Of a stretch of DNA of 64,000 bases, positions 47,196 through 48,836 are shown in pieces. Made by a program: the position numbers and the translations under genes. The notes beneath the pieces were generated by a model. It was not told the origin of the DNA. It did no database searches and saw only the letters and a list, made by a program, of their open reading frames with translations. Origin of the DNA: Eledone cirrhosa (lineage: Eukaryota); assembly GCA_964016885.1 (NCBI GenBank), contig OZ024743.1, positions 55,738,001 through 55,802,000 on the forward strand, read 5' to 3'. Positions within the stretch are counted from its first letter, which is position 1. Each line of letters starts with the position of its first letter.

Positions 47196-47636
47196 AAAAG
47201 TTTTATTTAAATTGTTGGGATACAACAAGCAAATATTTTTATAACTGATATAAAGCACTCGACAAATATTTGGAGTAGATATACGATATTAATAAATGGA
47301 AACTATATTTATAAAACCATATTTATTTCATTATATATATTTCAAGGATACCAAGTTACATTATGGTATGCCTTCATCAGACAAAATACAATATATAACA
47401 GTTTTATAAATAGACATTGACGTACCCCCTTTAAAAATTGACCGTTGTTTTTGGAGGCCTCCAAAAACAACGGTCAATTTTTAAAGGGGGTACGTCAATG
47501 TCTATTTATAAAACTGTTATATATTGTATTTTGTCTGATGAAGGCATACCATAATGTAACTTGGTATCCTTGAAATATATATAATGAAATAAATATGGTT
47601 TTATAAATATAGTTTCCATTTATTAATATCGTATAT
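47196..47636. mobile_element. Fold-back HHR element: 358-bp loopless palindrome (47279-47636) plus ~83-bp tail
   Basis: 179-bp arms centred on GGAGG|CCTCC, no mismatch seen; flanked by (TA)n. Confidence 0.93.
47527..47591 (+). ncRNA. Type I hammerhead ribozyme (mirror copy at 47324-47388, minus strand)
   Basis: TATTTTGT-CTGATGA-AGGcATACCA..TGGTATcCTT-GAA-ATATATAT-A-ATGAAATA. Confidence 0.85.
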
Positions 47637-47650
47637 ATATATATATATAT

Positions 47651-48385
47651 ATTTTGCAATACACTGTATGCTTAATTGAAAGCATTTTGAAGACCATACG
47701 CTATTGTTTTAAAATAGTGACAATGTCACTTATTTAAATCCTCAGCAAACAGGGGAGATACACTGACAGAGCTCTGTTTCGTACTTTTTGGTACTTATCA
47801 AAGTTCACTACCCCTCCTGTTTGCTGAAAATTATGTGTGTTGGATGCTTATAGAATTCCAGTAATAATCAGGAACTGATTATACAGAGCGGTCGCCGGTC
47901 CAGCAAAAATTGAAAATTAGAATTGGTGCTCTGAAATAGCGATATATATATATGAATGTCTATACAGTGTATTTTGCAATACACTGTATGCTTAATTAAA
48001 AGCATTTTGAAGACCATACGTTATTCTTTTAAAATAGTGACAATGTCACTTATTTAAATCGTCCTATGTCGCTATTTCAGAGCACCAATACTAATTTTCA
48101 ATTTCTGCTGAACCGGCGACTACTCTGAATAATCAATTCCTGATTATTACTGGAATTCTATAAGAATCCAACACACATAATTTTAAGCAAACAGGAGGGG
48201 TAGTGAACTTTGATAAGTACCAAAAAGTACGAAACAGAGCTCTGTCAGTTTATCTCCCCTGTTTGCTGAGGATTTAAATAAGTGACATTGTCACTATTTT
48301 AAAACAATAGCGTATGGTCTTCAAAATGCTTTTAATTAAGCATACACTGTATTGCAAAATACACTATATATACATTCATATATAT
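47651..48385. mobile_element. Tripartite HHR element: ~290-bp copy (-), partial tandem copy (-), inverted copy (+)
   Basis: 47651-47942 is approximately the reverse complement of 48069-48360; 47970-48060 directly repeats 47651-47740. Confidence 0.9.
48186..48267 (+). ncRNA. Hammerhead ribozyme with U3-A8 core (mirror copy at 47744-47825, minus strand)
   Basis: AGCAAACAGG..GAACT-TTGATAA-GTAC-caaaaa-GTAC-GAA-ACAGAGCTCTGT-C-AGTTT..CCTGTTTGCT. Confidence 0.85.
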
Positions 48386-48410
48386 ATATATATATATGTG
48401 TGTGTGTGTG

Positions 48411-48836
48411 TAAAAGTTCTATTTAAATTGTTGGGATACAACAAGCAAATATTTTTATAACTGATATAAAGCACTCAAAAAATATTTGGAGTAAAAATAC
48501 GATATTAACAAATGGAAACTATATTTATAAAACCATATTTATTTCATTATACATATTTCAAGGACACCAAGTTAAATTATGGTGTGCTTTCATCAGATAA
48601 AATATAATATAGATCAGTTTTATAAATAAATATTGACATACCCTTTAAAAATGCACGGGAGCTTCCAACAGTAATGGTTGCATTTTTAAGGGTATGTCAA
48701 TATTTATTTATAAAACTGATCTATATTATATTTTATCTGATGAAAGCACACCATAATTTAACTTGGTGTCCTTGAAATATGTATAATGAAATAAATATGG
48801 TTTTATAAATATAGTTTCCATTTGTTAATATCGTAT
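48411..48836. mobile_element. Second fold-back HHR element of the 47196 family (arms 48497-48655 / 48679-48836, 23-nt loop)
   Basis: Same tail and arm breakpoint as 47196-47636; HHR at 48729-48793 (+). Confidence 0.92.

Follow-up and report, generated by a model that had tools for sequence, protein, structure and literature searches.

The window analysed here is a stretch of 64,000 nucleotides from Eledone cirrhosa, and it contains two neighbouring palindromes, E1 and E2, with arms that agree within each palindrome and differ between the two. This locus raises the question of how such arms arise. According to a preliminary description of the sequence, the inverted arm is either made from the same template at each insertion or homogenised afterwards by conversion within the palindrome.

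Structure of the palindromes and of related copies

E1 (47279-47636) was described as a loopless, mismatch-free palindrome of 358 bp, and this is confirmed: its arms measure 179 and 179 nt, with no loop and 0 mismatches. In E2 (48497-48836), 155 of 155 aligned arm bases are identical when AT-runs are masked, and there is one 1-nt indel. Both flanks of E1 and E2 are microsatellite. The components of the two elements are:

47196..47278, minus strand: unpaired 3' tail of E1, 83 nt, with (AT)n at its end
47279..47457, minus strand: tail-bearing arm of E1, 179 nt
47324..47388, minus strand: minimal type I hammerhead motif in the left arm of E1, predicted cut after 47332
47458..47636, plus strand: tail-less arm of E1, exact reverse complement of the left arm, with a flush end in (AT)n; the junction is found family-wide in raw reads
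47527..47591, plus strand: minimal hammerhead motif in the right arm of E1, predicted cut after 47583
48412..48496, minus strand: unpaired 3' tail of E2, 85 nt, with (GT)n/(AT)n at its end
48497..48655, minus strand: tail-bearing arm of E2, hammerhead motif at ~48540-48604
48656..48678, plus strand: unpaired loop of E2, 23 nt, homologous to the 5' end of the E1 arm
48679..48836, plus strand: tail-less arm of E2, hammerhead motif at ~48729-48793, with a flush end in a long (AT)n

The tail-less arms of E1 and E2 end at one junction, within 2 nt of AT microhomology, as had been claimed for the inverted arms. In the right arm of E1 the predicted cut is 53 nt from the short end; the ribozyme cut site was rejected as an explanation of the junction, which lies those 53 nt downstream of it. 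The homology of the E2 loop with the 5' end of the E1 arm places the loop in sense with the tail-less arm. Alternatively, the loop may result from a later loss of ~11 nt in the left arm of a palindrome centred like E1.

Two further copies, A and B, belong to a sister subfamily that is about 75% like E1/E2 over 109 nt:

38640..38977, no strand assigned: copy A, related subfamily, with the tail-less arm on the left, a 26-nt loop at 38778-38803 and the tail-bearing arm on the right
59451..59746, no strand assigned: copy B, with a ~37-nt tail and the long arm on the left, a 26-nt loop at 59633-59658 and the tail-less arm on the right

The tail-less ends of A and B lie at a homologous place, at most about 4 nt apart, in agreement with the common breakpoint reported for the 38639 and 59450 pair. 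Other general statements of the preliminary description hold in part. The identity of the arms stands for E1 and, bar one indel, for E2, but copy A has a 61-nt deletion in its tail-bearing (long) arm, with 0 mismatches in the 77 bases that its arms share, and copy B has a ~47-nt deletion and 2 substitutions in its tail-less (short) arm. A tail of ~83 nt fits E1 (83 nt) and E2 (85 nt), but not B (about 37 nt) or A (about 97 nt). All four copies have the unpaired tail (37-97 nt) on one end only, on either arm. The centres do differ slightly, but the four copies reach one 5' boundary, common to them within about 7 nt. Variable 5' truncation is accordingly suggested by shorter-armed copies in the reads, but not by the copies in the window.

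The loops of A and B are alike at 23 of 26 positions and turn at the same natural stem, with opposite polarity: in A the loop runs in sense with the tail-bearing arm, whereas in B, as in E2 and the element at 46620-47022, it follows the tail-less arm. Loop inversion through recombination between the arms may account for the opposite polarity of A and B. The spacer of the element at 46620-47022 contains a hammerhead-like motif, at 46853 (plus strand); the inverted ends are ~50 nt long, and the shorter inverted copy bears a tail of 33 nt. Within a T-arm-like stem-loop, the loops of A and B also contain an 11-mer like a polymerase III B-box (38785-38795 and 59640-59650). These are its sole two matches in the window; it is degenerate in E1/E2, and no A-box was seen by eye.

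The hammerhead motif and its RNA context

A hammerhead descriptor matched 11 times in the window, whereas 20 local shuffles gave 0-2 matches each. With the fold applied to the four copies (E1, E2, A and B), pairing holds in 71 of 72 cells, compared with 38-56% in slid controls, and five of the eight stem II pairs had changes on both sides, among what are only four related sequences. The predicted ribozyme fold is thus conserved in all four copies. Helix III of the motif is a 2-bp palindromic stub, the dimer type of Penelope-like element (PLE) ribozymes, and a minimal hammerhead in the terminal repeat, which is a PLE feature, is present here as a motif (a predicted ribozyme). At gathering scores Rfam gave 0 matches in the window; at E-values up to 10 it gave 29 matches in 47190-48860, 0 of them above gathering, and the E1/E2 motifs were not reported. 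One of the candidates, MIR6140 (96.5 against 140 bits), was rejected, as it merely mirrors the long hairpin. Folded alone, the ribozyme stretches have weak z-scores (-1.85 to +0.5).

In computation, read-through RNA of either strand forms a single hairpin (about -290 kcal/mol) in which the ribozyme is included, in line with the earlier suggestion that such transcripts would hide it. As the antisense arm is transcribed first in both directions, masking of the ribozyme is predicted. Small interfering RNAs (siRNAs) matching inverted regions of Penelope are known in Drosophila, according to the accessible part of one report (PMC3681739), and perfect 180-bp hairpins in introns or UTRs would suit editing or siRNA production.

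Probable relationship to Penelope-like elements

E1, E2, A and B are likely to be the non-coding terminal-repeat ends of a family of Penelope-like retroelements. The pattern had been treated as unexplained, but the accessible portions of three papers (PMC8557442, PMC11167929, PMC3846280) already describe it as PLE insertion anatomy. PLE insertions comprise an inverted 5'-truncated copy, a tail of 30-40 bp at either end and (TA)n targets, and the origin of the inverted repeats and tails is named there as unresolved (Craig et al. 2021, PMC8557442). Palindromes occur at the inverted junction of PLEs (Arkhipova et al. 2013, PMC3846280), and inverted terminal repeats of varying size are the commonest form of Penelope (Schostak et al. 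2008, PMC2377424); these statements, too, come from the available parts of the texts. On the sequence evidence, E1/E2 appear to be a correctly described instance of this known insertion structure and would act like a PLE end. The bias to (TA)n/AT-rich targets is found family-wide in the reads.

The likeness to the insertion units of EN+ PLEs, as far as the available text of these sources goes, consists of the inverted terminal copy placed head to head, the tail at one end (either end), the (TA)n target and the palindrome at the junction (PMC8557442, PMC3846280). E1, E2, A and B differ in that their arms enclose no ORF, three of the four tails are 83-97 nt long rather than 30-40 nt, and the 5' boundary is nearly fixed. 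Minimal hammerheads are reported from PLE terminal repeats and also as opposite-strand pairs 100-700 bp apart in the part of the source available (Cervera and de la Pena 2014, PMC4209133). The metazoan PLE motifs described there share with ours the conserved core, the long helix II, the tiny palindromic helix III and the opposite-strand pairs, whereas the predicted E1/E2-type motif is without the bulged base where stem II begins and has a fixed internal mismatch.

Some points count against the reading as PLE ends or against its details. E1/E2 have no coding frame or link to a reverse transcriptase (RT), their longest stop-free stretch being 38 codons, so no ORF remnant ties them to one. At 83-97 nt, the tails of E1, E2 and A exceed the printed 30-40 nt. 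Two separate primings, the mechanism considered below, require the same RNA or source for identical arms, while fold-back of a single strand gives identity for free.

Non-coding hammerhead elements have been argued to derive from PLE terminal repeats in the case of tandem retrozymes (PMC7229834; bioRxiv 10.64898/2026.07.22.740005, accessible portions). The animal non-LTR retrozymes of these sources resemble our elements in being short, non-coding and equipped with a type I hammerhead, but are head-to-tail tandem units, whereas E1, E2, A and B are single head-to-head pairs. The element that lies between E1 and E2 looks more like a non-LTR retrozyme than E1, E2, A and B do:

47653..48378, no strand assigned: E3, retrozyme-like, made up of two ~290-nt units in inverted orientation (96% alike) and a further, partial tandem unit

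E3 is abundant in the reads. Its HH9-like hammerheads (47744-47815, minus strand; 48193-48269, plus strand) are below the Rfam gathering score and read U at the C3 position.

Probable synthesis of both arms at insertion

We consider it probable that the arms of E1, E2, A and B were made in the same insertion event, by reverse transcription from one RNA, so that the proposal of one template for both arms is supported. How the second arm would be primed is less clear-cut. The nearly identical 5' boundary, together with a tail on either arm, fits two separate primings better than simple fold-back, and two primings are the version to which we tentatively give close to an even chance.

A PLE RT-endonuclease, supplied in trans or by the parent element, would nick both strands of an (AT)n run, and from each nick cDNA synthesis would be primed at one of a pair of fixed positions within the RNA. 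These positions would lie 3' of the ribozyme, about 53 nt and about 136 nt beyond its predicted cut, and the RNA between them would become the tail. Both cDNAs would run toward the 5' end of the RNA until they come together at a short self-complementary sequence and are joined head to head, so that both outer ends would be 3' ends of the element, one with the tail and one without, and any surplus of one cDNA would form a loop. The arms would be identical at first and then decay separately, and differences between copies would be inherited from different source lineages. Twin priming of LINE-1 shares with this scheme that both strands of the target serve as primers on one RNA and that microhomology joins the cDNAs. 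It differs in that the second priming takes place far upstream, the product being an inversion in which no arm is duplicated.

In vitro, both strands of the target are cut and extended by a PLE protein that is predicted to form a dimer (Frangieh et al. 2024, PMC11167929, available text). The same portions of that paper place its start points at two internal RNA sites, one at either end of the tail, and report that ribozyme cleavage is unnecessary. Poseidon of Anolis, the element described there, is alike in its AT-rich target and in having the tail enclosed by two fixed junctions that lie 3' of the ribozyme; its sites lie close together inside the start of an ORF, whereas the E1/E2 region is non-coding. 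Inverted arms find no explanation in the available text of that paper. A literature search of partial coverage found no published proposal of two primings for the inverted arms of PLEs.

Within same-event synthesis, the second arm could also come from fold-back: a cDNA or antisense RNA would fold at a short inverted repeat at its 5' end and copy itself, and an endonuclease would trim one end, so that the tail could remain on either arm. Identical arms would then be automatic, and one natural stem, with its 26-nt loop, does mark the turn in both A and B. Self-priming (PMC3846280) and resolution of the tail by the endonuclease (PMC8557442) have both been proposed, in the parts of these papers that are accessible. 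However, fold-back without trimming or loop inversion predicts a single polarity, with the loop in sense with the tailed arm, and B, E2 and the 46620 element have the opposite one. The tail obtained in vitro is, moreover, the stretch between two RT start sites, according to the available text (PMC11167929). We regard fold-back as possible, and two primings as the better fit.

The nearly fixed 5' boundary leaves room for a short non-autonomous element in place of random stubs. E1, E2, A and B might then each be a complete copy of a non-autonomous element of ~270 nt that is driven by a PLE and has a fixed 5' end, a 'Penelope SINE', of which the B-box-like motif in the loops of A and B would be a part; it would take hairpin form since a dimeric RT-endonuclease primes both strands on one RNA. 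We hold this to be a possibility on the doubtful side. If it were true, the polarity of tail against loop, taken over thousands of such copies across the genome, would settle the origin of PLE inverted repeats. The structure itself is known and would not surprise a PLE specialist; its modest value is as test material. The family is very abundant and short enough to be spanned by single reads, so counts of polarity, centre microhomology and arm divergence could separate two primings, fold-back and conversion.

Divergence between copies and age of the arms

Comparison of E1 with E2 gives 20 substitutions over 174 aligned sites, and 4 over 83 sites in the tails. All 15 substitutions located in all four arms are mirrored and the other five fall in the E2 loop, so the observation that the two palindromes differ at many sites in both arms alike is borne out. 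Substitutions within copies (0/334) against those between copies (20/174) give a Fisher p of 2e-10 for E1 and E2. The differences are distributed unevenly: 13/66 in the 5' part, 6/66 in the ribozyme, 1/42 in the 3' part and 4/83 in the tail, and the 5' part (13/66) exceeds the 3' part plus tail (5/125) with p 0.001. The comparison of arm (20/174) with tail (4/83) is by itself not significant (p 0.11). All four differences at paired ribozyme sites preserve pairing, two of the four being one compensatory change, and there are 0 in the core. This clustered and pair-preserving pattern is unlike neutral decay, which would be even and pair-breaking. The differences were likely fixed in replicating source lineages and then copied to both arms at insertion.

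Arms drift apart with age in this genome. The window is microsatellite-rich and contains 12 inverted elements with arm identities of 87-100%; among them are short-loop palindromes with drifted arms (13/100, 11/92, 4/41, 3/72 and 2/74 substitutions), and one-sided deletions are found in A and B. Left out of the 12 were 20039-20164, 33747-33836, 44612-44827 and 44712-44954, which are dominated by microsatellites, and 23595-23797, with 69% identity. Taken together, the drift of arms and the clustered, pairing-keeping differences between E1 and E2 favour synthesis of both arms at insertion over later conversion.

If the arms had instead been homogenised after insertion, by gene conversion or template switching, E1 and E2 would be old and private mutations would have been copied across. 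The absence of mismatches in E1 (0/179 bp) and A (0/77), despite a divergence of 11-14% between copies, would suit such a process; recombination between arms could have left its trace in the opposed loop polarities of A and B, and an allele at 48479 in the E2 tail, absent from about 9 in 10 reads, hints at some age. Yet short-loop palindromes of the same window have drifted, with arms of other elements at 87-97%, one-sided deletions persist in A and B, and the uneven, pair-keeping differences between E1 and E2 are not those expected of neutral change. The preliminary alternative of later homogenisation is therefore disfavoured, and we consider it improbable.

The AT-rich junction in reads

For the junction in reads we used 4 of 11 runs: X1 and X4 supplied contigs, and X9 and X10, which are two samples of one study, supplied raw RAD reads; the small-share sets X5-X8 were left out. 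Reads were aligned at 80% likeness and so sample the family rather than the locus, and RAD reads are biased to one subfamily. About 43,000-45,000 reads aligned per RAD library, all three elements together. Loose (AT)n ends fall exactly at 47279 in 5,291 of 42,826 reads (X9) and 6,094 of 44,502 reads (X10), and the same junction behind 48826 is found in 872 and 1,022 reads, respectively. The depth running into the tail is about 12,500-fold in reads. Both end types, with and without tail, thus exist family-wide, which supports a fixed AT-rich 3' junction.

Symmetric-type joints were also recovered. Among the joints listed, 48528-48794 occurs in 86 and 79 reads with 1-2 start places, and 48524-48777 is, like it, another copy with much shorter arms; a contig has the joint 48642-48691. 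A further joint, 47211-48655, found in 62 and 38 reads with a single start place in each set, possibly represents a tail-to-head junction, and the partial-tandem (direct pLTR) arrangement is absent from E1, E2, A and B. The joint 48831/47285 in X9 and X10 (84 and 75 reads, 1-2 start places) has a short (AT)n between two tail-less ends; it represents two copies placed tail to tail at one microsatellite at some other locus. An exact search with one 35-nt pattern gave 0 matches in metagenome, viral and prokaryote genome contigs.

These data bear on whether the palindromes are fold-back reads or artefacts of assembly or polishing. No read or contig bridges the centre of E1 among those listed (18 of 1,845 loose-end and 15 of 103 joint rows), the best sets contain about half of the sampled words, and polishing could remove a few true mismatches. 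A fold-back read, though, would mirror tail and flank and stop at random, and the mirror excludes both and ends at a family junction that raw reads of other samples contain by the thousand. Mismatches, loops and one-sided deletions persist in other palindromes of the window, and the symmetric-type joints recur in X9 and X10 (48528-48794) as well as in the contig (48642-48691). An artefact is thus very improbable. Foldback or MITE-type DNA transposons, with terminal inverted repeats that meet centrally, are likewise highly unlikely: the elements are short and non-coding, with long inverted repeats and a TA-rich target, but their ends are asymmetric (an unpaired extension of 37-97 nt on one side in 4/4 copies), an RNA structure is conserved by covariation, and one-armed copies adjoin (AT)n inside the arm (loose end at 47412, among the rows listed).

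Other elements in the window

The asymmetric inverted geometry is general to several unrelated families in the window. One arm end lies at most 4 nt from a microsatellite in 10 of the 12 inverted elements (11 with the true end of A), and both ends do so in 0 of 12; as masking stops arms at microsatellites, the flush-end statistic reflects target bias only. Asymmetric palindromes at 4984-5202, 25483-25571, 44423-44629 and 63138-63284 have one end at most 4 nt from (AT)n and arms of 87-96% identity; a relaxed scan found no hammerhead core in these four. A one-armed relative of the 63138-63284 palindrome is located at 27327-27399. At 54269-54981, identical 144-nt arms flank a 425-nt (AT)n-rich spacer, and no hammerhead core was found; candidate origins are expansion of (AT)n in the centre of a hairpin, a pair of ends placed tail to tail, and fold-back in the assembly.

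Two related, decayed PLEs combine frames and terminal-repeat hammerheads:

55012..56307, plus strand: inverted terminal copy, truncated GIY-YIG-like frame and terminal repeat with a minimal hammerhead; arms 93% alike
61250..63111, minus strand: decayed PLE in which the RT and GIY-YIG frames are broken (61626-63111) and a minimal hammerhead comes after them at 61312 (minus strand); left boundary approximate

Inverted terminal repeats frame the GIY-YIG-like fragment of the first (55012-56250). Pfam gave no match for this fragment, and a protein search with it gave four matches that indicate no clade. In the second, RVT_1 (E 3e-4) and GIY-YIG (E 7e-4) are both below curated cut-offs. The first and the element at 61.7-62.1 kb share 70% DNA identity over 380 nt. 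The RT and GIY-YIG elements of the window are unrelated to E1/E2, and one has the same ribozyme type behind it.

A lone compact hammerhead motif with a 4-bp stem II is present at 45374-45401 (minus strand). The open frame at 46017-46550 (minus strand) starts from an (AT)n run and has CxxC and GIY-YIG-like motifs by eye, with no match in Pfam. A ~190-nt repeat occurs seven times (12831-12922, 22750-22919, 51019-51105, 56739-56812, 59171-59345, 60667-60871 and 63369-63553) and presumably resembles a tRNA-derived SINE. Decayed frames of non-LTR retrotransposons were identified at 13218-15657, 40234-43137 and 59894-60604, and RVT_1 is above the cut-off at 13991-14461 and 40829-41806.
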